Shown: piece by piece, positions 5,801 to 57,580 of the stretch | Layout of the letters: each line of letters opens with the position of its first letter | Position numbering within the stretch: position 1 is the first letter of the stretch | Assembly (NCBI GenBank): GCA_965207735.1 | Contig: OZ242296.1 | Location: 1,408,001-1,472,000 of the forward strand | Direction of reading: 5' to 3' | Source of the DNA: Candidatus Versatilivorator sp. | GTDB lineage: Bacteria > Acidobacteriota > Terriglobia > Versatilivoradales > Versatilivoraceae | DNA length: 64,000 bases | Program-made: the position numbers and the translations under genes | The notes under the pieces: model-generated | Database searches by the model: none | Told to the model about the DNA's origin: nothing | The model's input: only the letters and a program-made list of their open reading frames with translations

Positions 5801-6912
5801 CCCGCATTTCTCACCAGGCCGCTGGTGCCATGACGAAAAGTAGTTTATCTTCAGTACTTTGATTGGCTCCATGGTAAGGGCTTGTGGGTAACAGACGGCG
5901 CTGGGCATGCCCTGGCTTGTCTTTTTCCCTTCAGCGCGCACATGCTCCCTCGCACGTAGTGACCGCTACGCTCTTCGGTCGCGAGCACGCCCTGAAGGGA
6001 AAAATCCTGCGCCATGTTCATGCCCCCTGGGTAGAGTCGAGGACTGGCGCGTTGACTATAGGGTCCGGTGGCTATTCCGTCGCTTTCGCTTCGTGCCTCA
6101 GTCCGGCTCCCTTATCACGTTTCCAGTCCCCGCTCTCCGAACCGGACGTGCGGTTTTCCCGCATCTCGGCTCTCCAGTGGGATCATGCGTCTCGCACACA
6201 GGTCCCCGCTCGCATCCGTGGACGACTCCTATGGGATTGGCACCCGTCCCCCACTCCATCCACTTCCGCTCCCGGGTTGCCGCCAGGCCTGTTGATGCCC
6301 TGACGACGCCGTCCTCCTCCGACGACCCTTTCACTTTTGCATGTGATGCTTCCGGAGTCTCCGGCCCTTTTTTGGTCGGGGTTTCAGGCTTTCGCCACTC
6401 CCGGGACCCTTCCCCCTTCGGTCACCGCTCCTCACCTGAGGCCCCTTCCCTCCACCGGTATTACCCGGCTTCTCCGGTACTACAGGCCTCTCCGCCACCC
6501 TGTCGGCCTAGACTGACTCTCGCGAGCTTCCGGTTCGGTGCGTGCCTCACCACCCACAGGGCTTCCCATGTTGCTGCCTTCTTCCCCTTCCATGCGTGCC
6601 AGCGCCACTACCCCGGCGGGTCCAAAGGGGTGCCCGCGTCGCTCGCTTCCCCCTCCGTCTTCGGCCTTCCCCATTTCTCAGGTGGGTCGGCCCCCGCATT
6701 GCCCGTTTCGAGGCCTGCTCGACGTTCACTCGCGTTCCGGCCCGCATGCTCGCTGAACCGCCTTAAGCGGCCCTTTGACACCAGAGGGCTTCAGACCATA
6801 TCGTTACCTCCATGATCCGCCCTGGCTGCTACCAACCGGAGCGACAGTTGTTGGACGGGTTTCGCACCCGTTGGAAGAAGGCGCCTTTCCATGGCGCACT
6901 GAGAAATGCGGG
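5801..6912. mobile_element. IS1380-type MITE (~243 bp without the intron) whose right IR is interrupted by a group II intron
   Basis: Left end CCCGCATTTCTCACCAG at 5801. The right end re-forms as CTGG(6027-6030)+TGAGAAATGCGGG(6900-6912) once the intron is removed. Flanks are CCAG/CTAG. Ends are identical to the IRs of the IS at 42853-44550. Internal 13-bp perfect IR at 5922-5934/5992-6004. Confidence 0.85.
6031..6899 (-). ncRNA. ORF-less group II intron (IIB-like), 869 nt
   Basis: 5' GTGCG at 6899; domain V GAGCCGAGATGCGGGAAAACCGCACGTCCGGTTC; long domain VI ending CTCGACTCTAC at 6031. EBS1 TGAGAAA (6674-6680) and EBS2 TGCGGG (6693-6698) match the 5' exon. No RT ORF. Confidence 0.95.
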
Positions 6913-6913
6913 C

Positions 6914-6931
6914 TAGCCACCGCATCGCCAT
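6914..6931 (-). pseudogene. apbE: Detached 5' codons of apbE (MAMRWL)
   Basis: Removing 5801-6912 and one 4-bp flank gives in-frame ATG GCG ATG CGG TGG CTR GCG CCG ATT = MAMRWLAPILVFLVG, a signal-peptide-like start. Confidence 0.7.
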
Positions 6932-7016
6932 CGCAGGATACTCTGTTCGCAAATCGATAGGGAGTTGGACCACTAAACGGGAGGGATAGGTCGGTGCGGT
7001 CGGCACCAGGAGTCGG

Positions 7017-8396
7017 CTACACTTTTTGGGTCATCAGCTCTTGTTCCGGCTCTCCGGACTGGCGTCCCGGCCAAACCACCCGTTCCTTCCCGTCCATGGC
7101 CCGATTGGCGTAGATCACCGCCCGGGAGTCGGCGGCACCCACGTCCAGATCCGCCAGCGGCTTCTTGCCCTGGCGAATGCACTCGAAGAAATGCTCGTCC
7201 TCGGCCTGAATGGGATTGCGCTCGCGCTCGACCTCGATCACACCCAGCTCAACCAGCCAGCGGCGGGCATGCTCGACTTCGCGAGCCACAAATCCCTCGG
7301 ACTCGGCAGGAGGCTCAGACTGAATGGGAACCCCTTTGGCCTTCTGAAGGATGGTGGCTCCCGCCATCCAGTCCAGCTCTTTGGGAATTGCGGAAGACTC
7401 TCCGGCGGCGGGGGCGCCCCGAGCCAGTTTCTGGGGATAGAAGGTGGCTCGGGGATCGTTGCGTCCCAGTGTGATTTCAAGGGTTCCCCGATCTCCCAGG
7501 ATGGTTTCCGAGAACTCCAGATGCCGGTTGTGTCCGATGGCGCTGAAGAGGAACTTCTGTCCCCGGGGATATTGGTAAATCACGGCCACGTTGTCGAAGA
7601 TCTCCCGGCCATCCTTCCAGTAGTCGTTGCCTCCGACTCCGGTGACGCTGACCGGTTCCGACTCAAAGGCCCAATTGGCCACGTCCGCCATGTGGGACCC
7701 GAGTTCGGCCATCAGGCCACCCGAGTATTTCCGGTACATCCTCCAGTTGATGCTTCGTTCCAGCCCGGGATCCGGTACCGGACGGCGCCAACTGGTATTG
7801 CGGTGCCACTGGGCCCGGATGGTCATCACACGACCCAACACTCCCGTGTGAATCATGCGCATGGCGTTGCGGTAAACCCCGCTGTAGCGCCGCTGAAGTC
7901 CCACCTGCAGAACCAGCTCGGGGTGGCGATCCTTGGCCTCGTAGACCATGGGGATCTCGGCTTCCTCCTTCATCAGGCACTTCTCGACAAAGACGTGCTT
8001 TCCGGCGCTCAGGGCCTCCAGCAGCATGGGAACGTGCAGGTGGTAGGGGGTAGTGATGAAAACCGCCTCGACGTCCTTGCGCTCCAGCACGCGCCGGTAG
8101 TCGCCCGACTCGGTATCCGGCCGACCGCCGATCTCCTGCACCCCCTTGGCCAGGTTGGGAGCATGGGTATCGCACAGCACGGCGCATCGTCCGGATTTCA
8201 GGGTGCTCAAGTTCCTCAAGTGGTTTCTCCCCTGGGAGCCCGTGCCGATCAGGGCGTACACCACGGGCGAGTCCAGGCTCCGGGCAGAAATGATGGCGGG
8301 AGCCGCCACCTGGGAGGCCGCGGCTGCCGCGGCTGTCACGGAATTCTTCAGAAAGCCGCGACGGTTCATGGACGAACCATGCCGGCGGTCAGACAT
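7017..8396 (-). CDS. Gfo/Idh/MocA family oxidoreductase, Tat-exported
   Basis: Tat motif NRRGFLK; GTGSQG Rossmann motif; KHVFVEK; VGLQRRY. Confidence 0.9.
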   Translation of the reverse strand: MSDRRHGSSMNRRGFLKNSVTAAAAAASQVAAPAIISARSLDSPVVYALIGTGSQGRNHLRNLSTLKSGRCAVLCDTHAPNLAKGVQEIGGRPDTESGDYRRVLERKDVEAVFITTPYHLHVPMLLEALSAGKHVFVEKCLMKEEAEIPMVYEAKDRHPELVLQVGLQRRYSGVYRNAMRMIHTGVLGRVMTIRAQWHRNTSWRRPVPDPGLERSINWRMYRKYSGGLMAELGSHMADVANWAFESEPVSVTGVGGNDYWKDGREIFDNVAVIYQYPRGQKFLFSAIGHNRHLEFSETILGDRGTLEITLGRNDPRATFYPQKLARGAPAAGESSAIPKELDWMAGATILQKAKGVPIQSEPPAESEGFVAREVEHARRWLVELGVIEVERERNPIQAEDEHFFECIRQGKKPLADLDVGAADSRAVIYANRAMDGKERVVWPGRQSGEPEQELMTQKV

Positions 8397-8522
8397 TCAA
8401 TTCCCCCTCTTGAATCCCAGCCCGGCGCGATCGAGCCGATCGATGAAACACAACCGTGACTCACCTGCAACACGAACTATCACAGTTTAGTCCCTTTCAC
8501 CCCCAAACCAAAGTCCAGGCTG

Positions 8523-8528
8523 TATAAT
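8523..8528 (+). promoter_or_regulatory. Consensus -10 box, probably producing a leaderless mRNA
   Basis: TATAAT lies 7 nt before the GTG at 8536; no SD sequence. Confidence 0.5.
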
Positions 8529-8535
8529 CCTCACA

Positions 8536-9711
8536 GTGACTTCACTGCAACAGACCTTCAATCGATCGCTGGAAATCCTCTTCGAACTGATCCGTATTGA
8601 ATCGGTGAACCCTACCCTGGTGTCCGGAGGGGCCGGAGAGCAAGCCATCGCCGAGTATCTGTCCGACTTCCTGAGAAGCGAGGGCATCCCGAGCCAACTG
8701 CAGGCGGTCGCCGCGGGACGTTTCAACCTGTTGGCCACGGTGAAAGGGTCCGGCCCCGGACCGAGAGTGCTTCTCAATGGACACCTGGACACGGTGAGTA
8801 TCGCCGGGATGAAAACGCCCCTGGTGCCGGTCCTCGAGGACGGCAGAGTCTATGGCAGGGGGGCGCAGGACATGAAGGGCGGGCTGGCGGCAGCGGTTTC
8901 GGCGCTGCTGGCGCTGTCCCGACACAGGGAGGACTGGAAGGGCGAGGTTGTGCTGGCGGCCGTGGCCGACGAGGAGGACTTGAGTCTGGGAACCATCTGG
9001 TTTCTGGAGAATTGGCCGCAGGACAGACCCTTCGATTTCGCCTTGGTGCTGGAACCGACCGATCTTCAGGTGGCCACGGCCCACAAGGGGTTTGCCTGGG
9101 TCGAAGTCACCACCTACGGAAAGGCTGCCCACGGGAGTCGGCCGGCCGACGGTGTGGATGCTATTCGCCGGATGGGCCTGGTCCTGGGCCATCTGGACCG
9201 GCTGGACCGAGACCTGCAGAGCCGTCCTCTCCACCGCCTCCTGGGATCGGGCTCGCTGCACGCCTCAATGATCCAGGGCGGCCGTCAATGGAGCAGCTAT
9301 CCCGACCGCTGCCACCTGAAATACGAGCGAAGGACTGTTCCTCCCGAAACACGGGCGACCGTCGAATCCGAATTTGGACGAATCCTTCGAGATTGCCGGC
9401 GGCAGGATGGCCGCTTCCGGGGGGAAGCTTCGCTCGTCTGCGCGCGAGAACCCTTTGAAGCGGACCCTGATCAGAATGCCTTGCAGCGTTTCTATCACAC
9501 TGCCCGGTCGCATCGCCCCCGCCACGTTCGCTGGGGCAGTGTCTCATTCTGGACCGACGCGGCCCTGTTGGCGGGCGCCTCCATCCCGACTCTGGTCTTC
9601 GGCCCGCGAGGAGCCGGACTCCATTCCCTGGAAGAATATGTGGTGGCCGAGGACCTGGGCGACTGCGCCGAGATCATCTATCGCTTCGTGACTCAAGCCC
9701 TATCCGACTAA
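8536..9711 (+). CDS. M20 ArgE/DapE family deacylase
   Basis: LNGHLDTV, GRGAQDMKGG, ADEE, GKAAHGS, HSLEE. Confidence 0.9.
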   Translation: MTSLQQTFNRSLEILFELIRIESVNPTLVSGGAGEQAIAEYLSDFLRSEGIPSQLQAVAAGRFNLLATVKGSGPGPRVLLNGHLDTVSIAGMKTPLVPVLEDGRVYGRGAQDMKGGLAAAVSALLALSRHREDWKGEVVLAAVADEEDLSLGTIWFLENWPQDRPFDFALVLEPTDLQVATAHKGFAWVEVTTYGKAAHGSRPADGVDAIRRMGLVLGHLDRLDRDLQSRPLHRLLGSGSLHASMIQGGRQWSSYPDRCHLKYERRTVPPETRATVESEFGRILRDCRRQDGRFRGEASLVCAREPFEADPDQNALQRFYHTARSHRPRHVRWGSVSFWTDAALLAGASIPTLVFGPRGAGLHSLEEYVVAEDLGDCAEIIYRFVTQALSD

Positions 9712-10682
9712 CGGTCTCGGTCCAGAATCATTCGTGGGATCGCCTGCAGCGCCTGCCGGTAGGGAGAGGGGGGGAAACAGTCCAGAGCCGCTTCAGCTCT
9801 GGCGGCGAACTCCTGGGCGCGTTTTCGGGCTTTCTCCAGGACACGGTATCGGGTGACGATGGAAAGGATCTCCTCCTTGGAGACAGAGCGAAAGGCTTTC
9901 TCCCGCAGGACCGTCTTGATCTTCCCGGCCTCCTGCCGGTTGCAGACCTGCAGGGCGTAAACCAGCGGCAAGGTCATCTTGCCCTCTTTGAGATCGCTCC
10001 CCACCGGCTTCCCCAGAACCCGTTGCGAAGAACTCAAGTCGAGGATGTCGTCAGTAACCTGGAAGACCAGGCCCACGCACAGACCATAGTCCCCCAGCGC
10101 CCTTTCCTGGTCATCGCTGACCCTTCCCAGCAACCCTCCGATCCTGGCGCATCCGGAAAACAGATAAGCTGTCTTTCGCCGGGCGATATCCAGGACCTCC
10201 TGCTCGCTGACTTCGGGTCTGCCGTCCAGGTCGAGCTGAATCAGTTCCCCTTCCACCATCCTTTGGGTCAAGTCGATCAGGATGTCCAGAATGCGAAAGT
10301 TGCGTTCCTGCAGCGCCAGGTAGAAGGACTGCATGTAGAGCCAATCGCCCACCAGCACCGTGATCTGATTGCCCCACTTGTGGTTGACGCTGGAGCGGCC
10401 CCGGCGAACACTGGCGCCATCGATGATGTCGTCATGAACGAGAGTGGCGGTATGGATGAACTCGACCACGGCAGCCAGCTTGATGGCCGACTCGTTGACC
10501 TGGCCGCGGAGCTTGGTGCAAAGCAGCAGCAGGCTGGGGCGAATCCGCTTGCCACCGCCTTCCTGCAGGTATTTGCCGATCTCTTCGATGGTGCGAACCG
10601 GCGAGCGGCGCTGGCGTGCAAACTCCCCCTCGACCTGTCGCAACTCGTCTTTGACCAGATGGAATATCTCTTGGGGCCGCAC
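9708..10682 (-). CDS. Long-chain polyprenyl diphosphate synthase (IspB/HepT-like)
   Basis: GGKRIRP, LVHDDIID..RRG, QVTDDILD, GKPVGSDLKEGK. Confidence 0.9.
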   Translation of the reverse strand: MRPQEIFHLVKDELRQVEGEFARQRRSPVRTIEEIGKYLQEGGGKRIRPSLLLLCTKLRGQVNESAIKLAAVVEFIHTATLVHDDIIDGASVRRGRSSVNHKWGNQITVLVGDWLYMQSFYLALQERNFRILDILIDLTQRMVEGELIQLDLDGRPEVSEQEVLDIARRKTAYLFSGCARIGGLLGRVSDDQERALGDYGLCVGLVFQVTDDILDLSSSQRVLGKPVGSDLKEGKMTLPLVYALQVCNRQEAGKIKTVLREKAFRSVSKEEILSIVTRYRVLEKARKRAQEFAARAEAALDCFPPSPYRQALQAIPRMILDRDR

Positions 10683-10747
10683 TCAAACCCTTCCAGTAAT
10701 TGACTTGGGCAAGACCTTGATTTGACCGGCGCCGGGACTTCCGGCGG

Positions 10748-11620
10748 TCATTGCGGCGTTTCGCGCCCACCGGATGCGGAACCACCGGACTCGAAGCCCG
10801 CCCCGAGGCCCAAGGCCGGCAAAGCCTCAGCAGGCCTGCTCGGATAAGCCGGGCGGAACAGCCGCTGATAGTTCTCGGTCGTACACTTGGCCACGGCCTC
10901 CAGGCTGACCTGCTTGACCTCTGCCAGGGCTCTGGCGGTCTCCACCACCCAGGCCGGCTCATTACGCCTTCCGCGGAAAGGCACCGGGGCCAGATAGGGG
11001 GCATCGGTCTCGATCAACAGCCGGTCCATGGGGACGGCCCCGGCAACCTGACGGATGTCGTGAGCCTTGGGGAAGGTCAGCATACCGGAGAACGAGATAT
11101 GAAATCCCATTTCCAGACAGCTCCGGGCCATGGCCAGGCTGCCGGTGAAGCAGTGCATCACACCCGCCGGACCGCCACTGCGGTAGTGCTTGCCCAGAAT
11201 TTCGAGTGTCCGGACCTCGGCTTCCCTGGTGTGAATCACCACCGGGAGCTCCACCTCACGAGCCAGAGCCAGTTGTCGAGTGAATACCTCCTCCTGCTCT
11301 TCGGGCGTGGAATGGCGGTAATGGTAATCCAATCCGATTTCTCCCCAGGCAACCAGGCTGCCCGAGCGAGCCAGCCGGACAAGGTTCTCCAGACTCGCCT
11401 CCGAGGCCAGACCCGCCTCGTGCGGATGAATCCCGGCGGCCACATCCAGGTCTTCCTCCCGTTCCGCCAGCAGAACCGCCCTCTCGGTTTTGGCCGCATC
11501 CGCCCCGTCCCCAATCACCAGCACCCGTTCCACCAGGGCCGAGCGGGCTCGATCCAGCACTGACGGCAGGTCCGATTCAAACTCGGCTTCCGCCAGATGG
11601 GAATGGGAATCAATAAACAT
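10748..11620 (-). CDS. tatD: TatD family hydrolase
   Basis: IDSHSHL, GIHPH, GEIGLDY, IHTRE, HCFTG, ETDAPY. Confidence 0.93.
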   Translation of the reverse strand: MFIDSHSHLAEAEFESDLPSVLDRARSALVERVLVIGDGADAAKTERAVLLAEREEDLDVAAGIHPHEAGLASEASLENLVRLARSGSLVAWGEIGLDYHYRHSTPEEQEEVFTRQLALAREVELPVVIHTREAEVRTLEILGKHYRSGGPAGVMHCFTGSLAMARSCLEMGFHISFSGMLTFPKAHDIRQVAGAVPMDRLLIETDAPYLAPVPFRGRRNEPAWVVETARALAEVKQVSLEAVAKCTTENYQRLFRPAYPSRPAEALPALGLGAGFESGGSASGGRETPQ

Positions 11621-11646
11621 CGGATCGGCGGCAGTCAACGCCCAGA

Positions 11647-12285
11647 CTACGCCCCCGGCCGACCTCCGAACCGGGTTCGCGCGACTTCATAGAGTATGGG
11701 AGTAATCGACAGGAACACGATCAGGAGGACCACCTTCTCCAGGTTGTCGCGAATCCAGGCCACCTGCCCCAGGTAATACCCGGTCAAGACCATCGACACC
11801 ACCCAAAAGATACCACCAAACACATTGAAGGCGGCAAAGCGAGGATAGGACATCTGGCCGATACCGGCCACAACCGGCGCAAAGGTTCGGGCGAAGGGCA
11901 CGAATCGGGCCAGCACAATCGCCTTTCCACCGTGCTTCTCGTAAAACTCCCGGGCGTAGAACAGGTGCTTCTTGCGAAACCAGAAGCTGTCGTCCCTCTT
12001 GTAGAGAGCCACACCCGCTCGGTAGCCAATGGCATAGCCCACGGCGTCACCGACGATGGCCATCACGCTCAGCAGCACCAACAGGACACTGACGTTGAAG
12101 AACCCCTTGGCAGCCACCAGGCCCGCCAGGAACAGCAATGAGTCTCCGGGCAGGAAAAAACCGATAAAAAGGCCTGTTTCGGCAAAGACGATAACCGCCA
12201 GCACCAGGTAACCGCCAGACCGAATCAGTTCGATCAGCTTGTCCGGATTGTAAAGACTTGAGAAAAATTCGAGAATCGCTTCCAA
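11647..12285 (-). CDS. dedA: DedA/VTT family membrane protein
   Basis: FAETGL..FLPGDSLL and ARFVPFART motifs. Confidence 0.9.
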   Translation of the reverse strand: MEAILEFFSSLYNPDKLIELIRSGGYLVLAVIVFAETGLFIGFFLPGDSLLFLAGLVAAKGFFNVSVLLVLLSVMAIVGDAVGYAIGYRAGVALYKRDDSFWFRKKHLFYAREFYEKHGGKAIVLARFVPFARTFAPVVAGIGQMSYPRFAAFNVFGGIFWVVSMVLTGYYLGQVAWIRDNLEKVVLLIVFLSITPILYEVARTRFGGRPGA

Positions 12286-12375
12286 GAAGCCTCTGGGGGG
12301 GCTCTATCCCACACTTCTCACCGGGCTGCCGGCGAAATCATGAAAGGGTGAGCCATTTGCAAAATTTGTCCTGCC

Positions 12376-14382: not shown

Positions 14383-14416
14383 CGATCTCCGGGGGAGTGC
14401 TTCGCGGCCGCCGCTC

Positions 14417-15700
14417 CTAGCCCAAACCTGATCCGTGCCGCTTCAGGAACTCTTGCATCACCTGCCGATGCACCTGCTTGTAGGGCACCCGGCGGCGCTG
14501 GGCCAGATCCTTGCATTCCTCATACTCGGGAGAAAAGCTCACGATTCGGCCATCCAGCCGAGCCACTTTCACCGACACCGTACCCATTGGACTGTCCACC
14601 GCTTCGATGATTCGGTCCAACACCTTTCGACGGCATCGGTGGTAGCGAATGCCCAGGGTGGTGGTCTCCTCAAAAAGCACCTTGCAGACACCGTCCAGGA
14701 GTTCCAAGGGAAGAACCACGGTCAGAAGGATTCCCGGACGGTTCTTTTTCATCTGGACCGGGCAGGTAAACACATCGTGGACTCCCAGCTCGAACAACCT
14801 CCCCTGCACGTATCCGATAATCTGGGGGTTCATGTCATCGATGTTGGCCTCCAGAACCCACACCTCGGAATCCGATGAAGCCGAATCGGAATCGACCGGT
14901 TGGCCGCTCAACACTCGCAGCACATTGGGACCATCCTTGTGATCGCGGCTGCCGGCGCCGTACCCGATACTCTCCACCCGATAGCCCGGCAACTCTCCAA
15001 AACTCCGGCAAATGGTGGTCAGAATGGCTGCCCCGGTCGGCGTGACCAGTTCCCCTTCGATTCTGTTGGTGTAGATGGGCACTCCCTGGACCAGTTCCGC
15101 CGTGGCCGGGGCGGGAACGGGCATGGTCCCGTGGGCGCAGTCTACCGTTCCCCAACCCACGTTGAGCGCGGAGGCCAGGCATCCGGGGGAGCCCAGCCAG
15201 TGCAAGCCGACAAAGGCCCCGACAATATCGACGATGGCGTCGACGGCGCCGACTTCGTGGAAGTGGACTTTTTCCACGGTGGTTCCGTGAACCTTGGCCT
15301 CGGCTTTCGCAAGCCGGAGAAAGGATCGGCAGGCGTTGTCCTGCACCCAGGGATCCAAAGCACTGCCGCGGATGATTTTCTCAATGGTCGAATAGTGCCG
15401 GTGGTGGTGCTCTTCACCGGTCTCCACATCGAATTTGGTGGCCATCACCCCCGACTTGTCGACGCGGGAAGACTTGAGGCGGAAGTTCCTTACATTCAGC
15501 TTTTCCAATTCGCCGGCGAGATGCTCCATCGGGAGTCCCAGGTCCAGCAGCGCTCCCAGAATCATGTCTCCGCTGACTCCCGAGAAACAGTCAAAATACA
15601 AATTTTGCCCGCGTTGAGTACCCACCTGTCTTGTCTCCACGGAACTTTCCGGCGCCGTTGCGCTCCGAAATTCGGCAACCCTGCTTCCGAGACAGAACAC
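14417..15700 (-). CDS. larC: Nickel pincer cofactor nickel insertase LarC (start uncertain)
   Basis: YFDCFSGVSGDM, His-rich HHHRH, HFHEVGAVD, CAHG.MPVPAPAT, ANIDD, MKKNRPG. Confidence 0.92.
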   Translation of the reverse strand: MFCLGSRVAEFRSATAPESSVETRQVGTQRGQNLYFDCFSGVSGDMILGALLDLGLPMEHLAGELEKLNVRNFRLKSSRVDKSGVMATKFDVETGEEHHHRHYSTIEKIIRGSALDPWVQDNACRSFLRLAKAEAKVHGTTVEKVHFHEVGAVDAIVDIVGAFVGLHWLGSPGCLASALNVGWGTVDCAHGTMPVPAPATAELVQGVPIYTNRIEGELVTPTGAAILTTICRSFGELPGYRVESIGYGAGSRDHKDGPNVLRVLSGQPVDSDSASSDSEVWVLEANIDDMNPQIIGYVQGRLFELGVHDVFTCPVQMKKNRPGILLTVVLPLELLDGVCKVLFEETTTLGIRYHRCRRKVLDRIIEAVDSPMGTVSVKVARLDGRIVSFSPEYEECKDLAQRRRVPYKQVHRQVMQEFLKRHGSGLG

Positions 15701-15813
15701 TAGGCTCAGACTCAGCCGTTTGTCAAGGCGAACCCGAGCGGCTGAGCGTCACCGGTAAAGCCTTCGCCCCGGACCGATCCGGAAGGGCCATGCCTGGGAT
15801 GGAAGTCCTGTTC

Positions 15814-16983: not shown

Positions 16984-16993
16984 CGGCCGACTC

Positions 16994-42626: not shown

Positions 42627-43087
42627 CTTGGTGATTGAGCAAAAATAAACCAGTCGGACGGTAAGGTAAACCGAAAACAGGCCCGGGGCGGGGTGTTTGT
42701 CCCCCACCAGCTCGACTGCGGGCTCCGCTAACGGGACGCCGCGTTGGCCCTTCTCCGGATCGACTGCTGGCTGCGCCCTCCCTCCGGAGAACGCCCTCTC
42801 ATTGCCCATCGACCCCCTTGGAGACATGCTAAGCCCCACACAAGAAGACTAGCCCGCATTTCTCACCAGAGTTCGCACAGGAGCGGTAAAAGGGGCCATG
42901 GAGGCATTTGAGGCCGAGTTTAACAACGTTGGTGGCTGGATCGGTAGGCAAAGGCCAACAGCGGAGGCTTCTGAGGCTCTCCGAGGAACCTCAGGCGGCA
43001 TTTTCCCTCGAAAACAGCGACACCTCTGCCATCGGGCCTGGTGGCCGCGTCTTCAAGGGCCAGGAGTGACGGTCGGGTCAGGGCACC

Positions 43088-44455
43088 TCAGGGCGGCAGG
43101 TGAGCCCAAGCGATGCGGAACTCCCTCTGGTAAGGACATCCGGAAGCCATGGCGACCTTGATGCGACGGACCGAGATGGTGACCTGAGCGCCGATCTTGA
43201 GCAGTTTGAGTCTGATGGAACCGACGGTGGCCCGGGCCAGGCAGGTGGATTGCAGCGCCCGCCGGCGCAAGCCCTCCACCAGCACATAGGCGAAAGAGGT
43301 CATCAGGAGCCGGAGCTGATTCGCCCGGAAGGAGTGGGTGGAGGTGCGATCGGCAAACAGGTCGAGTTGCTGCTCCTTGATGCGGTTTTCCATCTCACCG
43401 CGGGCACAGTAGATCTTCTCATAGAGGAACTGGGCGGGGTAGTCCTGGACCGACAGAGAGGTGACGACGAAGCGGGGGTTGGGGCCGCGGGGCAGGACCT
43501 CGGCTTTGGCGACCAGGCGGCGCTCGTGGGACCAGCTCTTGTGAGTGCGGTAGGAGAGGTCGGTGAAGATCCGGGCGGGCTGCTGTTGCTGGTCTGAGAG
43601 GGCCTGGGCCTGAGCCAACTCGGGGGCGATGGCGTCTTGGAGGCGGGAGTTGCGGGCCAGGCCGAAGAGATAGTCGACCTGATGCTGCTCACACCACCCC
43701 ATCAGCTCCTCACGGGCAAAGCCGGAGTCGGCCCGCAGCAGGATCTTGACCTGAGGCCAGACACGCCGTAGGCGGGAGACGATGCGCTGGACCTGCTCCA
43801 GAGCGCCGGCGGAGGCATCGATGTTGGCGGGTCTGAGCAGGGCCGAGAGCAGATGGCGGCCCGAGAAGATGTAGAGGGGCAGGTAGCAGTAGCCTCGGTA
43901 GTAGCCGTGGAAGAAGCGGTCCTCTTGTTCCCCGTGGAGGGGATCGTCAGTGGCGTCGAGGTCGAGGATGATCTCATCGGGGGGTTGGGGATGGGCTTGC
44001 AGAAACAGTTTCACCAGGAGGGCTTGCAAGGCCTCGGGGTCGTGGTCAATCTTGTGGTAGCGGGTGGGGCCTTGGGTGGGGGCGTGTTCGAGTCGGTTGA
44101 GGGTGCTCTTGCCTGCCAGGGGAGGCGAGTCGCCACGACGGCCTTTCTCTGAAAACAAGGCCATGAGGGGATCGTGACGGAGTTGGTCGTGGTCGATGAG
44201 ATCCTCGTAGCCGAGGGCGATGCCACGGATGCGCTGAGCGATGAGGGTGCGCAGGCTGTATTGGGTCCGCTTGGGGTCGCGGTGATCGGTGAAACAGTCG
44301 GCCACCTGGTCGGAGAGAGATAAGCCCCGATCCACCCGGCGCAACAGCAGGGAGCCGGCATCGGAAGTGATGGGACCGCCGTCGAAATCAGCCACCACGC
44401 GGCGGCGGCCGTGGGGTTCAAACTCCAGGGGTTTGGTGTTACACTGTGTCGGCAT
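43088..44455 (-). CDS. IS1380-family DDE transposase
   Basis: FDGGPITSDAG, GYED..DH, LDLDATDD, HGYY, LRADSGF, YCARGEMENRIKEQ, ANQLRL, LLKIGA. Confidence 0.95.
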   Translation of the reverse strand: MPTQCNTKPLEFEPHGRRRVVADFDGGPITSDAGSLLLRRVDRGLSLSDQVADCFTDHRDPKRTQYSLRTLIAQRIRGIALGYEDLIDHDQLRHDPLMALFSEKGRRGDSPPLAGKSTLNRLEHAPTQGPTRYHKIDHDPEALQALLVKLFLQAHPQPPDEIILDLDATDDPLHGEQEDRFFHGYYRGYCYLPLYIFSGRHLLSALLRPANIDASAGALEQVQRIVSRLRRVWPQVKILLRADSGFAREELMGWCEQHQVDYLFGLARNSRLQDAIAPELAQAQALSDQQQQPARIFTDLSYRTHKSWSHERRLVAKAEVLPRGPNPRFVVTSLSVQDYPAQFLYEKIYCARGEMENRIKEQQLDLFADRTSTHSFRANQLRLLMTSFAYVLVEGLRRRALQSTCLARATVGSIRLKLLKIGAQVTISVRRIKVAMASGCPYQREFRIAWAHLPP

Positions 44456-44524
44456 CGGTTCTCCTTTAAGAATCTGGTTAACTCCTTAGACAAGAGTATT
44501 TTACCAGATTCCGAGAACCGATGC
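44452..44524 (-). promoter_or_regulatory. Fold-back hairpin sequestering the transposase RBS and start codon
   Basis: GCATCGGTTCTC (44452-44463) pairs with GAGAACCGATGC (44513-44524); inner GAATCTGGT pairs with ACCAGATTC. Confidence 0.65.
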
Positions 44525-44556
44525 TTCCTACCTCTGGTGAGAAATGCGGGCTAGCC

Positions 44557-44606: not shown

Positions 44607-44746
44607 CAGAAGCCGAGCCGAATGGCGAAGGCTGATGCGGTGGGGGGCCGACGCCGAGGCCCCAGCCAGGGGTCGCCCCCAGCCCAAGGCCGTCAGGAGT
44701 CGCAGAAGCCGAGCCGAATGGCGACAGCTGATGCAGTTGGGGGGAC
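44607..44746. repeat. Imperfect ~96-bp-period direct repeat (CAGAAGCCGAGCCGAATGGCGA..GCTGATGC..GGGGGG)
   Basis: 22-bp identical core at 44607 and 44703. Confidence 0.8.
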
Positions 44747-44798: not shown

Positions 44799-44827
44799 TT
44801 GACCCGCTCAAGGCCGTTCTGTATAAT
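44799..44827 (+). promoter_or_regulatory. sigma70-type promoter of aroA
   Basis: TTGACC-N17-TATAAT. Confidence 0.65.
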
Positions 44828-44882
44828 TCCCCACTTTCCGTCTCACCCCTTCCCACAATCCGGACCCCTCTGCTGACCACTG

Positions 44883-46169: not shown

Positions 46170-46183
46170 CAACCAGATAACCC

Positions 46184-46226
46184 TTGACATGCAGACATTT
46201 GTCTGCTAAATATTCTCTTTTTGTTC
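46184..46226 (+). promoter_or_regulatory. imuA promoter with putative LexA box and a spacer palindrome
   Basis: TTGACA at 46184; GCAGACAtTTGTCTGC palindrome at 46191-46206; ATTC-N7-GTTC at 46212-46226. Confidence 0.6.
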
Positions 46227-46276
46227 CCTTTTTACGACTGCCTCTGAAGTACAGAGGGGTAGCCCCAGGAGAATAC

Positions 46277-48332: not shown

Positions 48333-48341
48333 ACGCAAACC

Positions 48342-51300: not shown

Positions 51301-51455
51301 AGCGCTATTCCCTGCTGGCCAAGACGCTTTCCTGCATGGGGGTCACCGGGAATCTGCAGGTGGCGGAAGGAGTCACCCACCTGGTGGTCCGAAAAATCTG
51401 GAAGCCGGAGCTGGAGAAGGAATCCCTCCACCTGAAGAGCCGGGACTTCCACTGA
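48342..51455 (+). CDS. dnaE2: Error-prone DNA polymerase DnaE2
   Basis: [43 protein letters not shown]-terminal SRDFH. Confidence 0.97.
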
Positions 51456-51560
51456 CAATCGATGGGCCTGAGGCTCACTCACAACCCCACCTCCGGCGAA
51501 CCCGAATTTCATCTCAGAAGGCACCGCAGTTCCACCCGGAAAATGACCACGCACCAACCC

Positions 51561-51604
51561 TTGACGGCAAGTCGTCCCTGAGATTAGACTAGATTCCAAC
51601 TAGT
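51561..51604 (+). promoter_or_regulatory. TA operon promoter/operator
   Basis: TTGACG-N18-TAGACT overlapping ACTAG..ACTAGT repeats. Confidence 0.45.
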
Positions 51605-51630
51605 TTATTTCTTGTTCAGGGAGGCTAAAC

Positions 51631-51873
51631 ATGCCTGAAGTAGGCGCGTTCGAGGCCAAGACCCATCTTCCCAGGTTGCTGGAACGGGTCCGGAAGGGCG
51701 AGCGCTTTGTGATTACCAAACACGGAAACCCCGTGGCCGAACTCATTCCATTCAGGAAACGCGATACGGCAAAAATTCGCGCAGCAATTGACGACCTCAA
51801 GGCATTTCAGGAAGCCCATAGCCTGGGTGGATTGTCGGTCAGGGAGTTGATCGAGGAAGGGCGCAAAAGCTGA
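51631..51873 (+). CDS. Phd/YefM family antitoxin
   Basis: VGAFEAKTHL..LLERV..GE...ITKHG.PVA.L motif. Confidence 0.9.
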   Translation: MPEVGAFEAKTHLPRLLERVRKGERFVITKHGNPVAELIPFRKRDTAKIRAAIDDLKAFQEAHSLGGLSVRELIEEGRKS

Positions 51874-52279
51874 TGCCGTTTGTATTGGACTGCTCGGTAA
51901 CCATGGCCTGGCTGTTTCTCGATGAGGGTAACGATTCTACCGATGCGCTACGGGAGGAGTTGGTGATGGAGCACGCGGTTGTACCCGCGCTATGGCCCAT
52001 CGAGGTCGGCAATGCACTACTGGCTGCTACGCGGCGCGCAGGCTTTCCGAGGAGGATTGGCCGCGAATCCGCAATGACCTCGCGCAATTGCCTATTGAAA
52101 TCGACACGGATTCCTGTGCCAGGGTCTTGGACAGGGTACTGCCCGTAGCCAGGGATCATAGGCTGTCCGTATACGATGCAACCTACCTGGAACTTGCAAT
52201 GAGGCTTTCCCTGCCACTTGCCACACTGGACCGCCAACTAGCCGCAGCCGCCAGAGGGGCCGGCCTCGAGATTCTCTGA
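51873..52279 (+). pseudogene. vapC: VapC/PIN toxin, frameshifted near 52038
   Basis: The N-half (FVLDCSV..W..DE..LWPIEVGN) and the C-half (LSVYDATYLELA..LATLD) are in different frames; one missing base would restore ATRRGRLSEEDW. Confidence 0.85.
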
Positions 52280-52336
52280 AGGATTCCTACACGGTCGTAT
52301 CCTAATGCCAGGGGTCGGCTGGGCAACACCGGTCTT

Positions 52337-53239
52337 TCAGGACTCCCGTTCCAGCACGTAGTCGGCGATCTCGAGCAGCGGCCAGGCAGCGTCTCCCAGG
52401 AATTCAAGGCTGGACTTGGCCTGGGCAATCCGGCGCCGCGCTTCCTCTCTGGCCGCCTCCACACCCAACAGGCTGGCAAAGGTCACCATGTCCCGCTCCT
52501 GATCGCTGTGGGCGGCTTTGCCCATCTGCCTTGGGTCTCCCGTCACATTGAGAACGTCGTCAACGATCTGGAAGCCCAGGCCCAGCCCTTTGCCGTAGCG
52601 CCGCAACGCCCCCAGAACCCTGGAGTCGGCCCCCGCCAGCAGGCCCCCGCATTCCAATGAGGTCTCGATCAGCGCCCCGGTCTTGCGCCCGCAAGTCTCT
52701 TCCAGGGTTTCCTTTCGTCCATCCCGGGCGTCATTGGAGATATCCATGACCTGGCCGCCCACCAGGCCCACTGTACCGATGGCCCGGGCCACGGCGCGGG
52801 CTGCTGACAGCTGCGCGCCTTCGGGAAAACAGCCCTTTCGGTCTTCGGTCAGCAGGCACTCGAAGGCCAGCGCGGTCATGGCGTCTCCCGCCAGGACGGC
52901 CATGGCTTCTCCGAAGACCTTGTGGTTGGTGGGACGCCCGCGACGATAGTCGTCATCGTCCATGCAGGGCAGGTCGTCGTGGATCAGCGAGTAGGTGTGG
53001 ATCAGCTCCAGACCGCAGGCAGGCACCAGGATGGCGTCCTGGCTGCCGCCGGCGATCCGGTAGGCGGCGATGGCCAGGATGGGGCGAAGGCGCTTCCCAC
53101 CGGCAAAGACGCTGTAACGCATGGCCCGGTGGATGAGGCGGGGCTCCCGATCCTCCGGAGGCAGTACCTGCTCCAAGGTCCGGTCAACCTGAACCCTTTT
53201 TTCGCGCAGATACTTTTCTAATCGAGGGGACACGAACAC
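52337..53239 (-). CDS. ispA: Short-chain prenyl diphosphate synthase (FPP/GGPP)
   Basis: GGKRLRP, YSLIHDDLPCMDDDDYRRG, KTGALI, FQIVDD. Confidence 0.9.
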   Translation of the reverse strand: MFVSPRLEKYLREKRVQVDRTLEQVLPPEDREPRLIHRAMRYSVFAGGKRLRPILAIAAYRIAGGSQDAILVPACGLELIHTYSLIHDDLPCMDDDDYRRGRPTNHKVFGEAMAVLAGDAMTALAFECLLTEDRKGCFPEGAQLSAARAVARAIGTVGLVGGQVMDISNDARDGRKETLEETCGRKTGALIETSLECGGLLAGADSRVLGALRRYGKGLGLGFQIVDDVLNVTGDPRQMGKAAHSDQERDMVTFASLLGVEAAREEARRRIAQAKSSLEFLGDAAWPLLEIADYVLERES

Positions 53240-53254
53240 ACCCTGGACTCTCGG

Positions 53255-53455
53255 TTACTCAGCCAGCTCCCGGTCACGCTCGGATCGAGCTGTCGCACCA
53301 AGCGCGAGCTGCCTTCGAAGGTCCGCTCTCCCCTGTTCCTTGACGAAGCGTGTCACGGCTTCGTCAATCAACTTCGAACGCTGGCCTCGAGGTGCAGCAC
53401 GATCGAGCATCCTGACCGTTTGTTCCGGCAGGGTGATGTTGAGCCGTCGGTTCAT
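53255..53455 (-). CDS. Ribbon-helix-helix (CopG-like) antitoxin-type protein, no adjacent toxin
   Basis: RRLNITLPE...LD.......RS..IDEAV RHH pattern; SD GAGG. Confidence 0.65.
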   Translation of the reverse strand: MNRRLNITLPEQTVRMLDRAAPRGQRSKLIDEAVTRFVKEQGRADLRRQLALGATARSERDRELAE

Positions 53456-53514
53456 TGGGACCTCACGTTATCTTCGAGGGGACACGGCCACACCCGCACG
53501 GTGGTCTGTAAATG

Positions 53515-53985
53515 TTAAATCCCGCAATGAGCCAGGCCACGCTTTTCCAGGTACTGCTGGTGGTACTCCTCGGCTCGGTAGTAGGTGGAGGCCGCCGTGA
53601 TCTCGGTGACGATCGGGCGCGGATAGCGGCCGGAGGCGTTCCGCCTCTCCCTGGACTCCCGGGCTGCCGTTTCCTGGCGAGCGTCGTGAAAGAAGACGGC
53701 CGAACGATACTGGCTGCCGAAATCGGGCCCCTGGCGATTCAAGGTGGTGGGATCGTGATTGTCCCAAAAGATGTCCAGCAACTGCTCAAAGGTGACTTTG
53801 GAGGGATCGTATTCGATGTCGACCGCCTCGGCATGACCGGTGGTGCCGGTACACACCGCCCGGTAATCAGGATTTTCCAGGGTTCCTCCCGTGTAGCCCA
53901 CGGAAGTGGACAAGACCCCTTCGACCTGCCGAAAGGTGGCCTCGACGCCCCAGAAACAGCCGGCTGCAAACGTGGCCATGGCCAT
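53515..53985 (-). CDS. msrA: Peptide methionine sulfoxide reductase A
   Basis: GCFWG, GHAEAV, DPT..NRQG.D.G.QYRS, AEEYHQ.Y. Confidence 0.96.
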
Positions 53986-54168
53986 GGATGCTCTCCTTTC
54001 TCCCCGCCCGTTCAGATATGGGGGCCAAGCCAGTATAGCGGATTTCCTGCCCAAGGAAGCGCCGGAGGACGAGATTCGCCAACCGATGATCCACATCCTG
54101 GATAATCAACCGTCATTCCCTGTGAATTGTTGTATGATCGGTGGCCGTATCCGATCCAGGGGGGAGCG

Positions 54169-55818
54169 ATGGACGCGATTTGGGCCGCGGCCGGCTGCTT
54201 GGTCACCTACGTCCTCTTCTACCGATTCTATGCCAGGTACCTGGGCCGATGGGTCTTCCGCCTGGACCCGGACAGACCGACTCCGGCCCACCAGTTGCGG
54301 GACAACGTCGACTACGTTCCCTGCCGGCGCAGTGTCCTGTTCGGACACCACTACGCCTCCATCGCCGGGCTCTCACCCATGCTGGGGCCTGCCATCGCGG
54401 TGATCTGGGGATGGCTTCCCGGCATGCTCTGGGTGGTGTTCGGCACCCTCCTCATCGGGGCCGTCCACGACTTCGGAGCCCTGGTCCTTTCCATGCGCAA
54501 CCGGGGCCTGAGCATCGGCAAGGTGGCCGAGGAAATCATCGGGCCGCGAGCCAAGTCCCTCTTCCACGTTCTTATCTTTTTCCTGGTCTGCCTGGCCATG
54601 GGCGTCTTTGTCCACGTGGTGGCCGGGCTGTTTACGGCCTCCTTCTACCCCGAGGCGGTCTTCCCGACATTCTCCCTGATCGCCATCGCTCTGGTGGTGG
54701 GCTGGGCCGCCTTCAGAAAGTCGATCTCGGTCTGGAAGCTCACCGTCGGGGGCTTCGTTTTAATGCTCTTCACCATCTGGCTGGGCCTGCAGTTCGATAA
54801 GCCCGATCTGACGGCCGGTGTATGGGGAGTGCTGATCCTGATCTATGCTTTCTGCGCCTCCACCCTTCCCGTCTGGGCCCTGCTTCAGCCGCGGGACTAT
54901 CTGAACTCCTTCCTCCTCTATCTGGGCCTGGGGCTCGCCTACGTCGGTTTCTTTGTCCTGCGACCCAACTTCGCGGCTCCGGTGCTGGACGCCAGTCCCG
55001 CCGGCGCTCCGCCCATCTTTCCCTTCGTCTTCATCGTCATCGCCTGCGGCGCCGTTTCCGGGTTCCACGGACTGGTCTCTTCAGGAACCACCTCCAAACA
55101 GATCTCGCGGGAAACCGATGCCGTCTCCATCGGCTACGGCGGCATGATCGGGGAGTCGCTGCTGGGCCTGCTGGCGGTGCTGGCCTGCACGGCCGGATTC
55201 CGAACCATCGAGGCCTGGAACACCCACTACCAGAGCTGGTCGACCGCCGGCACGCTCTCCGAAAAGATGCGGGCCTTCATCGATGGGGCGGCCCTGTTCA
55301 TCAGCCAACTGGGAGTACCCTTTTCCTGGGCCCAGGCCTTCATCGCCCTGGTGGCCGTGTCCTTTGCACTGACCTCTCTGGACTCCGGCACCAGGCTCCT
55401 ACGCTACAACATCACCGAGATCGCGAGCGGCCTGCGACTGCCGCTTCTGACCAACCGCCACCTCTCCTCCCTGCTGGCGGCGGTTTCCATCGGCTTCTTC
55501 GCCTTTTATGAAGTGGACGGCAAACCGGCCGGGCTCCTCCTGTGGAAGCTCTTCGGCAGCACCAACCAGGTCCTGGCGGCACTGACGTTGCTGACCATCG
55601 CCATCTACCTCCGGCAACGCGGCAGAAACCACTGGTTCGCCAGCCTGCCCATGCTCTTCATGATCACCGTAACCGTGATCGCCATGGTCATGGAGATAAA
55701 GGGCTACTGGATCTCCAGCCAATACCTCCTGCTCTCGGTAGGCGGCGCCATCCTCCTGCTGAGCCTCTGGGTCATGCTGGAGGCCTCCATTCGCTTTCGA
55801 AAAGACAGCCTCTCCTGA
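54169..55818 (+). CDS. cstA: Carbon starvation protein A family transporter
   Basis: TPA....D..DY, LFGHHY.SIAG, LLQPRDY, IACGAVSGFH, GYGGM..E, FGSTNQ. Confidence 0.93.
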   Translation: MDAIWAAAGCLVTYVLFYRFYARYLGRWVFRLDPDRPTPAHQLRDNVDYVPCRRSVLFGHHYASIAGLSPMLGPAIAVIWGWLPGMLWVVFGTLLIGAVHDFGALVLSMRNRGLSIGKVAEEIIGPRAKSLFHVLIFFLVCLAMGVFVHVVAGLFTASFYPEAVFPTFSLIAIALVVGWAAFRKSISVWKLTVGGFVLMLFTIWLGLQFDKPDLTAGVWGVLILIYAFCASTLPVWALLQPRDYLNSFLLYLGLGLAYVGFFVLRPNFAAPVLDASPAGAPPIFPFVFIVIACGAVSGFHGLVSSGTTSKQISRETDAVSIGYGGMIGESLLGLLAVLACTAGFRTIEAWNTHYQSWSTAGTLSEKMRAFIDGAALFISQLGVPFSWAQAFIALVAVSFALTSLDSGTRLLRYNITEIASGLRLPLLTNRHLSSLLAAVSIGFFAFYEVDGKPAGLLLWKLFGSTNQVLAALTLLTIAIYLRQRGRNHWFASLPMLFMITVTVIAMVMEIKGYWISSQYLLLSVGGAILLLSLWVMLEASIRFRKDSLS

Positions 55819-55880
55819 ACCGCACATCTCACCGGTTGCTGGATACATTCTGTAAATTCGGGTCAAACAGGGAGATGGGG

Positions 55881-56309
55881 TCAAATTACGTAGAAGGACT
55901 GATGGTCAGCTCCGGGAACCACGCTTGGCGAGATGCGGGCATCGAATGTAACGAAGCGCCCTTGCTGCTCAACGGCGAGCGCCAACAGATAAACATCGCT
56001 GATCTGTTTGGAGCCAACTACCCGATGCCAATCTGCAACGCCCGGCTGCAGAAGACTGATTTGATCGGGCCAGAATTGATGGTGGCTGGTGGCCGTTGCC
56101 TCAAAGAGGCGTTGGGCAACGAGGGACGCTGCCAGGCTATTGGGATAGGCCGGGTGGGCCATGACCCGCAAACACCCATTCTGGGTGATTGGGCAGGTCG
56201 CCCAACCGTGTTGGATGTTGTCTCTCAACCACCGCCTGGCGGACTCGTGATGCAGGTGTTCGGCATCCAGCAAGGCGATCAGGACGTTCACATCCAGTAG
56301 CGCTCGCAT
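55881..56309 (-). CDS. vapC: VapC PIN-domain toxin
   Basis: LLDVNVLIAL....H.HH, WATCPITQNG, QISDVYLLALA, VTFD. Confidence 0.9.
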   Translation of the reverse strand: MRALLDVNVLIALLDAEHLHHESARRWLRDNIQHGWATCPITQNGCLRVMAHPAYPNSLAASLVAQRLFEATATSHHQFWPDQISLLQPGVADWHRVVGSKQISDVYLLALAVEQQGRFVTFDARISPSVVPGADHQSFYVI

Positions 56310-56560
56310 CAGTCGCCCATCTCTTCGCGCAGCCGTCCGATCAGTTCGTTGGTGACGACACCGCCGCGTTTGGGAAACGGACGAAAGCCAAACTCGGCGC
56401 CGGGCTCTTCCGTTTGGCTATCCGGGTCCTCCGGTCCGGCCGGAGCCAGCGATTGCCGAAGCATGTCCGATATCACCGCGCTGGCCGATTTCGACTTGCG
56501 TTTTGCGAGTTCCTTGACGGCAATCAGCAAGTCATCGTCGATATTCAGAGTCGTTCGCAT
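56309..56560 (-). CDS. vapB: VapB (RHH) antitoxin
   Basis: MRTTLNIDDDLL..VTNELI..LRE; translationally coupled to vapC. Confidence 0.88.
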   Translation of the reverse strand: MRTTLNIDDDLLIAVKELAKRKSKSASAVISDMLRQSLAPAGPEDPDSQTEEPGAEFGFRPFPKRGGVVTNELIGRLREEMGD

Positions 56561-56590
56561 GGCTGAATCCCAACCGGAAGATCACAAGGA

Positions 56591-56622
56591 TTGATGCTAC
56601 CGCACTATGCATCACGCATCAA
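56591..56622. promoter_or_regulatory. Putative VapB operator
   Basis: TTGATGC...GCATCAA inverted repeat upstream of vapB. Confidence 0.5.
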
Positions 56623-56698
56623 TGTTCTTCGGCGGAAAAAATCCCCCGGCTTTCGAGGCCTTCACTCGTGAGCCGAATGCAGCCGGCGAAGCTGGAGG

Positions 56699-57567
56699 GT
56701 AGAGTCGAGGACTGGCGCGTTGACTATAGGGTCCGGTGGCTATTCCGTCGCTTTCGCTTCGGGCCTCAGTCCGGCTCCCTTATCACGTTTCCAGTCCCCG
56801 CTCTCCGAACCGGACGTGCGGTTTTCCCGCATCTCGGCTCTCCAGTGGGATCATGCGTCTCGCACACAGGTCCCCGCTCGCATCCGTGGACGACTCCTAT
56901 GGGATTGGCACCCGTCCCCCACTCCATCCACTTCCGCTCCCGGGTTGCCGCCAGGCCTGTTGATGCCCTGACGACGCCGTCCTCCTCCGACGACCCTTTC
57001 ACTTTTGCATGTGATGCTTCCGGAGTCTCCGGCCCTTTTTTGGTCGGGGTTTCAGGCTTTCGCCACTCCCGGGACCCTTCCCCCTTCGGTCACCGCTCCT
57101 CACCTGAGGCCCCTTCCCTCCACCGGTATTACCCGGCTTCTCCGGTACTACAGGCCTCTCCGCCACCCTGTCGGCCTAGACTGACTCTCGCGAGCTTCCG
57201 GTTCGGTGCGTGCCTCACCACCCACAGGGCTTCCCATGTTGCTGCCTTCTTCCCCTTCCATGCGTGCCAGCGCCACTACCCCGGCGGGTCCAAAGGGGTG
57301 CCCGCGTCGCTCGCTTCCCCCTCCGTCTTCGGCCTTCCCCATTTCTCAGGTGGGTCGGCCCCCGCATTGCCCGTTTCGAGGCCTGCTCGACGTTCACTCG
57401 CGTTCCGGCCCGCATGCTCGCTGAACCGCCTTAAGCGGCCCTTTGACACCAGAGGGCTTCAGACCATATCGTTACCTCCATGATCCGCCCTGGCTGCTAC
57501 CAACCGGAGCGACAGTTGTTGGACGGGTTTCGCACCCGTTGGAAGAAGGCGCCTTTCCATGGCGCAC
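56699..57567 (-). ncRNA. ORF-less group II intron, second near-identical copy (869 nt)
   Basis: Same sequence as 6031-6899 except one substitution noticed in domain VI (TTCGGGCC vs TTCGTGCC); inserted in the same IR at the same position. Confidence 0.95.
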
Positions 57568-57580
57568 TGAGAAATGCGGG
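57568..57580. mobile_element. IS1380-type IR (outer part), the intron's 5' exon
   Basis: TGAGAAATGCGGG followed by CTAA; joined to GG at 56697-56698 it restores CCCGCATTTCTCACC on the minus strand. Confidence 0.85.

Follow-up and report, generated by a model that had tools for sequence, protein, structure and literature searches.

How a group II intron that encodes no protein of its own comes to be inserted, twice in one window, at the end of a DNA transposon is the question raised by the stretch of DNA analysed here. The window is this whole stretch of 64,000 nucleotides (nt), which corresponds to C1:1408001-1472000, C1 being the single 5.26 Mb contig (61.9% GC) of the Candidatus Versatilivorator genome under study, G000. 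We propose, at a probability of about 85% and on the grounds of comparative sequence analysis, that this intron, which lacks an open reading frame (ORF), spreads by retrohoming with a reverse transcriptase (RT) borrowed from co-resident full-length relatives, and that its copies in G000 probably stem from a recent burst of a non-autonomous intron into the ends of IS1380-family insertion sequences (ISs) and of miniature inverted-repeat transposable elements (MITEs). The introns of the window and their targets are as follows.

6031..6899, minus strand: ORF-less group II intron, copy 1, 869 nt, with an Rfam match.
56699..57567, minus strand: ORF-less group II intron, copy 2, 869 nt, carrying the majority haplotype of 22 of 28 copies.
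5801..6912, unstranded: 243-bp MITE with IS1380-type ends, flanked by CCAG/CTAG, its right end split by copy 1.
5801..5815, plus strand: empty left end repeat of the 243-bp MITE.
6900..6912, minus strand: outer 13 bp of the split end repeat, that is, the 5' exon of copy 1, with intron-binding site (IBS) 1 at 6900-6905 and IBS2 at 6910-6913.
6913..6916, minus strand: CTAG target-site duplication, in which 6913 (exon -14) is the partner of the fourth base of exon-binding site (EBS) 2.
57568..57580, minus strand: outer 13 bp of the solo end repeat holding copy 2, with TTAG before it.
42853..44550, unstranded: intact intron-free IS1380, 1698 bp, with 19-bp perfect inverted repeats (IRs) and a CTAG duplication.
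43088..44455, minus strand: IS1380-family transposase, 455 aa (NF033539, 410.6 bits against a cut-off of 180).

The two introns differ by 1 nt over 869 nt, both match Rfam RF02003 (domain I) and RF00029 (domains V-VI) above the gathering score, and an ORF scan of the window copies found no stop-free stretch longer than 107 aa, so that their description in the original prediction as two ORF-less 869-nt introns is borne out. In both cases the 5' exon ends in TAGCCCGCATTTCTCA and the 3' exon begins with CC, after which the sequences diverge, and removal of the intron in silico restores CCCGCATTTCTCACC, the end repeat of the IS1380 at 42853-44550, as had been predicted. The parting of the 3' exons after CC and the distinct hosts likewise agree with the earlier view of two independent insertions into different repeats. 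The assignment of the intact element to the IS1380 family is supported by a transposase above the cut-off, 19-bp terminal repeats and a 4-bp target duplication, and each insertion divides the 19-bp end repeat into 13 and 6 bp.

A BLAST census of G000 returned 29 full-length ORF-less matches, 28 of them at 99.5% identity or more, and all 28 near-identical copies are inserted at the identical bond, 13 nt inside an IS1380-type end repeat, while the 29th match (90.5% identity) occupies a different target. The claim that these end repeats are the homing target is supported, most copies lying in IRs and not elsewhere. The hosts are six full IS1380 elements (two left and four right ends), 19 MITEs (ends of 130-243 bp elements or typed fragments of these) and three solo repeats; both ends of an IS or MITE serve as target, at one repeat position. 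After in silico excision of the introns, 291 repeat-like sites with at most two mismatches were counted. Of these, 143 are exact, 27 of them filled; 70 have one mismatch, 2 of them filled (by an ORF-less copy and by an RT-bearing intron, respectively); and none of the 78 with two mismatches is filled. The 13-mer of the end repeat occurs 157 times in the intron-excised genome, versus 0.14 expected from base composition, and a 4-bp target duplication (mostly CTAG, TTAG or CTAA) matches in 44 of 58 typed elements. Because 19 of the 21 full IS1380 copies are no more than 1 nt from a common allele, the target pool is probably renewed by an active IS1380, which supports the notion of a self-replenishing target.

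The division of every end repeat into 13 and 6 bp raises the possibility that the insertions are retained for disabling IS1380 and MITE ends and thereby limiting transposition, the intron being domesticated by the host rather than only parasitic. A similar role has been argued for RmInt1 and its IS (PMC5894124), and the ORF-less lineage is persistent in five congeners and one other family. However, only 7 of the 21 full IS1380 copies are filled, no element in the G000 census carries an intron at both ends, the majority of insertions lie in non-coding MITEs, and the same chassis targets unrelated repeats in two congeners, G004 and G008. We give such a host-selected brake a small chance of being the explanation.

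The orientation of the copies points instead to the intron's own mobility. With the origin placed at dnaA (C1:3.54 Mb) and the terminus taken from the GC skew, 24 of 28 introns are co-oriented with the replication fork (P=1.8e-4), as are 23 of 28 when the terminus is placed at the antipode; within two-ended elements, where both orientations are on offer, the count is 19 of 21. By comparison, 40 of 116 empty exact sites (Fisher 1e-6) and 10 of 21 full IS1380 copies are co-oriented. A preference for the lagging-strand template is characteristic of introns that lack an endonuclease (PMC4615759), and the co-orientation seen here matches it. In addition, 22 of 28 introns are identical, the remaining six carrying private or shared substitutions, versus 30 alleles, about 10 nt apart, among the 31 MITEs of the 243-bp type, which indicates that MITEs already present and already diverged received the intron one at a time. 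Fork bias and identical introns in diverged MITEs together argue for independent retrohoming in trans and not for hitch-hiking. As a separate observation, the cumulative GC skew reverses at C1:4.0-4.5 Mb, which suggests an inversion, and of the four counter-oriented introns the one at 4364745 agrees with the local skew.

Hitch-hiking, which the original prediction had offered as an alternative, would mean that the IS1380 transposase moved filled elements as DNA and so multiplied one or a few insertions. It is compatible with the retention of the outer 13 of 19 IR bases at the tip, with the matching 4-bp duplication in 19 of 22 filled typed elements and with four full IS copies filled at the same end, and it may have occurred occasionally, given that in the only pair of identical MITEs among the 31 (C1:5027596 and 5213340) the intron occupies the same end of each copy. 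Nevertheless, the filled sites cover six end types as well as solo repeats, the filled MITEs lie ~7-10 nt apart while their introns are near-identical, the filled MITE at 152897 has an empty nearest relative 1 nt away, and the fork bias is a property of the introns and not of the full IS copies. As the main route hitch-hiking is thus already unlikely, with a slim chance at best. That the copies are immobile relics kept identical by gene conversion or by assembly-polishing collapse is very improbable: although gene conversion between intron subgroups has been reported (PMC3522654), recombination acts on these introns as seen in their domain I mosaics (below) and domain V carries an atypical extra A, conversion should have homogenised the MITEs too, which are ~4% diverged, and the six substituted copies, the 94-95% identical versions that three congeners have at their own sites and the compensatory changes in helices all speak against it.

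For the favoured reading, retrohoming in trans, the following course can be envisaged. Read-through transcription and maturase-assisted splicing would yield an intron-protein particle, in which EBS1 would pair with TTCTCA and EBS2 with the transposon tip and the last base of the target duplication. The intron RNA would then reverse-splice into the lagging-strand template at the fork, with copying primed by the nascent strand. As every IS or MITE has two opposite ends, one of them is always on the favoured strand, and IS1380 activity, if ongoing, would create fresh sites.

Candidate proteins for this role are co-resident, and one of the introns that encode them reaches into the window.

1..336, minus strand: 5' end of a type D RT-bearing relative, 1995 nt, running off the window start; candidate helper.

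The full-length RT-bearing relative that the original prediction proposed to look for was found, G000 having fifteen RT-bearing relatives, of which 14 have an RT/maturase ORF that scores above the TIGR04416 cut-off while the last is frameshifted, so the genome does hold potential trans-acting proteins. They fall into types B (one copy), C (one copy) and D (13 copies). Type B, at C1:5004992, has the same EBS1 as the ORF-less intron, interrupts a diverged IS1380 at its left end and encodes a 456-aa protein with only the Pfam domains RVT_1 and GIIM and without an endonuclease domain. The single type C copy occupies another target, and the near-identical type D copies, each 1995 nt long, lie mostly in a different repeat. 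The RT proteins of the three resident types are 82-90% identical to one another, and the closest named RT relative is that of locus L075 (94% identity). The usual type D target is a purine-rich repeat with a 5' exon ending in ATCCACGAAGGGGCA and largely G-U or G-T wobble pairing, and 11 of 13 type D copies are fork-co-oriented. A further repeat, the third kind of target, is occupied by an ORF-less chimera, by a full RT intron and by a 117-nt remnant whose two intron ends are intact (C1:1135573, 4589468 and 4261108). Among the loci from other genomes, L086, L118, L119, L122 and L131 contain head-to-tail arrays of RT-bearing and ~720-nt ORF-less relatives, with at least five units in L122; head-to-tail arrays have been described for RmInt2.

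How the intron recognises the repeat was assessed by covariation in an alignment of 28 variants, picked by hand from the retrieved intron loci, together with predicted folds. The segments concerned are:

6675..6680, minus strand: EBS1 (UGAGAA) in the Id3 loop (copy 2: 57343-57348), by fold and covariation, with a predicted delta C at 6681.
6701..6704, minus strand: EBS2 by covariation (GGGC), in a variable loop (copy 2: 57369-57372).
6693..6697, minus strand: 5' strand of an internal domain I helix, formerly taken for EBS2, pairing with CCCGC at 6620-6616.

EBS1 forms 137 of 168 possible Watson-Crick pairs with exon positions -1 to -6 (the shuffles average 72.8, and none of 10000 reaches this count), as predicted from its complementarity to the repeat. 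The segment UGCGGG (6693-6698), which the original prediction had named EBS2, is complementary to the repeat in its letters, but its exon pairing (70 of 168) does not rise above the shuffles (mean 68.1; 3156 of 10000 as high). Its partner is instead CCCGC (6620-6616) within the intron: in the 25 rows of sufficient length, 124 of 125 cells are paired, four of the five pairs show compensatory changes, and the predicted fold agrees. We therefore reject UGCGGG as EBS2; of the two segments originally proposed, EBS1 does lie in the expected loop, whereas the other lies in an internal helix. The true site seems to be GGGC (6704-6701), ~7 nt upstream, which pairs with exon positions -11 to -14 in 68 of 112 cases (shuffle 42.5; 0 of 10000 as high) and, with free register, in 93 of 112 versus 61.4 shuffled under equal freedom. 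An IIB-like EBS2-IBS2 pairing is thus found at 6704-6701 and not at 6698-6693. Exon -14, the partner of its fourth base, falls in the target duplication and hence outside the IS. As for EBS3-IBS3, +1 is C in 28 of 28 copies and its candidate partner is an invariant-looking G, and relatives with A at +1 exist. In congener G011, introns with a U-variant EBS2 are found at TAA in 5 of 5 sites versus 7 of 28 empty sites (P=0.003), and C-variant ORF-less copies are also at A in 4 of 6, which makes for a mixed signal on the -14 pair. Elsewhere, the RT introns of L061-L065 and L073 have the EBS1 UGUUAA and are inserted in TAACCCATCTTTAACA; the 3' exon of L073 is similar to the left end of IS1380, which suggests that an altered EBS1 has followed a variant of the IS end.

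The comparison with other genomes bears on the targeting of the ORF-less intron. A search of 61 genomes gave some match in 32, and 5 of 13 congeners are listed with ORF-less copies of full length. Filled junctions number 16 in G005, 13 in G011 and 8 in G009; none was found in G004 and G008, though all five congeners hold empty repeats, and the ORF-less introns of these two have another EBS1 and another repeat as target. RT-bearing introns with an IR-type domain I occur at full length in G005. IR-inserted introns in congeners are often interrupted or internally deleted (L147, L151, L155, L156, L158, L160-L162 and L054). The search for RT relatives gave 72 loci, of which 56 were parsed and 16 were not; two of Gemmatimonadota origin, L123 and L129, are inserted in IS1380 ends and are the only two with an IS1380 transposase in the fetched flank. 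A specialisation of the whole intron clade on IS1380 was considered and rejected, as only a few more loci have IR-like exons and most of the 56 parsed loci use other targets.

The 3' and 5' parts of these introns have different histories. Over the last 175 nt, the ORF-less copies of G000 and the five congeners share 96.6-98.9% identity with each other versus ~66% with RT-bearing introns, and the 3' ends of ORF-less introns group in a single clade (100/100), to which a copy from a different family also belongs (G048, 87-89%). Over the first 400 nt, by contrast, the ORF-less label needs six changes, three of them forced by strong branches, and domain I is highly similar to that of RT-bearing introns with like targets (98.5% for the C-type, 95.7% in G004, 96.5% in G008). 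An approximately unbiased (AU) test on 19 rows, with G048 omitted as a long branch, rejected a single ORF-less clade for domain I at p=0.0012, or 1.5e-6 without nt 186-240, the EBS region, and in three chimeras the informative sites switch at nt 399-412, 321-324 and 397-410 (0 of 2000 permutations each). Because of the AU rejection and these breakpoints, recombination in domain I between ORF-less and RT-bearing introns is well supported. The ORF-less 3' chassis would thus exchange domain I, and hence its choice of target, with RT-bearing relatives by homologous recombination. Whether it is a long-lived, cross-species non-autonomous chassis that keeps domains III-VI and takes domain I from a co-resident RT intron, gaining a target and probably also a protein, is a proposition that we consider evenly balanced. 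In G000, the ORF-less form at IS1380 tips outnumbers the single cognate RT copy by 28 to 1. If the proposition is true, the intron would be a parasite of a retroelement living within the parasites of a transposon.

A number of observations weigh against retrohoming with a borrowed RT, or limit the data behind it. Four of the 28 copies oppose the fork. Type B is 92.5% identical to the ORF-less intron over domain I, the ORF-less 3' end has only ~66% identity with any of the RT introns, and the match of the IR-type RT copies from G009 and G011 is confined to their first 1445 and 1410 nt. A comparison of domain IV with RT sequences gave patchy similarity with a score of 54 versus 56.5 for the best of 500 shuffles, and tblastn detected no RT remnant there. 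The extra bulged A in domain V could impair catalysis. G at -14 is present at 22 of 27 filled versus 98 of 116 empty exact sites, so that this pair is not selective in G000, and T-16/A-15 shows no significant enrichment at filled sites (P=0.11); as neither is enriched, the IS/target junction is rejected as a selective filter in this genome. The shuffle counts given above for EBS1 and EBS2 overstate significance, as the aligned variants are related; slid controls gave 32-49% paired versus 84.7%. The genomes are probably metagenome assemblies. Finally, no exon-exon joint across 6030-6900 is present among the matches listed, which cover 15 of 27 RNA contigs. These contigs were assembled from four metatranscriptome runs, with depths summed over organisms and repeats; over the intron the summed depth is ~50 to 130,000, versus 0-50 on flanking genes, and the contigs include pieces with one difference over 113-179 nt from domains V-VI and the EBS region. 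Given the summing and the lack of a listed joint, the RNA coverage was not counted as evidence for splicing or expression level.

The ribozyme itself has the hallmarks of a group II intron, with a GUGYG 5' end, an AY 3' end, a domain V with AGC triad and AC bulge and a domain VI with a bulged A. Its class-defining elements are:

6139..6172, minus strand: domain V; it has the AGC triad, an AC bulge and a loop of 5 nt, plus one additional bulged A.
6638..6644, minus strand: predicted alpha-prime, the complement of alpha at 6845-6839, placed at a stem-loop tip; a class E/F feature.

Judged by these structural traits, namely alpha-prime at the stem-loop tip and the 5-nt domain V loop, and by the domain content of the RT-bearing sister, the ORF-less intron is class E/F-like. 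It shares with class E/F (IIE/IIF) these two traits and, in the RT-bearing sister, an endonuclease-less RT/maturase, and departs from that class by its long domain VI and by the additional bulged A of domain V (PMC3753933; PMC3552965). The extra A is located in the lower stem of domain V in the ORF-less lineage and is absent from the three RT-bearing types.

Two published systems come closest. All seven copies of RmInt2 in S. meliloti GR4 lie in the IRs of ISRm17 (PMC4615759; PMC5894124), and its authors note that each element doubles the targets and guarantees a lagging-strand site (PMC4615759). As in RmInt2/ISRm17, the copies described here lie in IS terminal IRs with two targets per element, no endonuclease is encoded, and there is a bias towards the lagging-strand template, which was shown experimentally for RmInt2 (PMC4615759). 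RmInt2, however, is a class D intron with its own protein and seven copies in ISRm17 (PMC4615759), whereas here the spreading form is ORF-less and class E/F-like, with 28 copies in IS1380 ends, mostly of MITEs. In T. elongatus, 17 ORF-less introns are moved by driver proteins, and one family lies inside an IS, ISEL1 (PMC2882425). As in these TeI3 introns, the ORF-less copies in G000 outnumber the ORF-bearing ones, families have different EBS (PMC2882425), and related RT-bearing introns are co-resident with an intron that has no ORF. Mobilisation in trans was shown for TeI3 (PMC2882425), whereas for the present intron we infer it. TeI3 involves one deletion in a local intron family, proteins with an endonuclease domain and EBS divergence within shared ancestry, and an IR location is not described in the available text (PMC2882425); here, the ORF-less 3' half is ~66% identical to the resident RT introns and shared across species, and domain I segments are 96-98.5% identical to different RT introns. 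IStrons, which combine a group I intron with an IS, also bring a ribozyme and a DNA transposon together at one locus, but an IStron is a fused element that is mobilised by its transposase and concealed by splicing (PMC4227781). In our case the transposon end is split by the intron, and a separate, RNA-based mobility is the reading favoured by the evidence.

IS-inverted-repeat homing (RmInt2/ISRm17) and ORF-less mobilisation in trans (T. elongatus) are therefore both already published; what is added here is the corrected EBS2 and the mosaic domain I. A literature search in which subscription papers and supplements were outside the scope listed no published account in which an ORF-less intron targets IS1380 or MITEs, or in which domain I is swapped. 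The present case joins the two strategies in one complete genome, and its countable filled and empty targets make target rules, strand bias and a possible restraint of the host IS by the intron directly testable. ORF-less introns have been described as rare in bacteria, and non-mobile derivatives as not persisting for long (PMC4424553), and an ORF-less lineage kept across a genus and beyond may represent a counter-example worth checking. If functional, natural domain I swapping would amount to modular ribozyme retargeting and to the pairing of a small RNA with a foreign RT, and could thus be of use for targetron design in the little-studied class E/F.

Some further features of the targets deserve mention. 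The 243-bp MITE and the IS1380 have only their 17-20 bp ends in common, and an origin of this MITE as an internal deletion of this IS1380 was rejected, as the match is confined to the ends. In its intron-free form the MITE is predicted to fold into a long closed hairpin (-112.5 kcal/mol, with no shuffle control), and its interior (5801-6030) has very deep coverage by RNA-run contigs. Two 41-nt direct repeats, 96 nt apart, at 44607-44743 adjoin the left end of the IS1380. In 9 of 13 IS1182-family copies above the cut-off (for example C1:3946199-3947251 and 1212914-1213966), CTAG at the left end abuts an IS1380-type end, always in the same orientation, and 7 of 7 IS1182-adjoining fork-co-oriented ends are intron-filled versus 17 of the 57 co-oriented exact sites elsewhere (Fisher 5.6e-4); homing there might be favoured by a short hairpin at the tip of IS1182 or by a promoter that points outwards. 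For the solo repeat that holds copy 2, no partner repeat was found within 6 kb and no IS or MITE is recognisable. An empty orthologous site was not found either, the repeat being absent in 7 of 7 congener loci examined, and the site is hypervariable, with a different upstream sequence in all seven. Copy 2 is followed directly downstream, on its own strand, by a gene for a VapC-type toxin (55881-56309), and a short frame upstream of this gene (within 55881-56566) may be its antitoxin.

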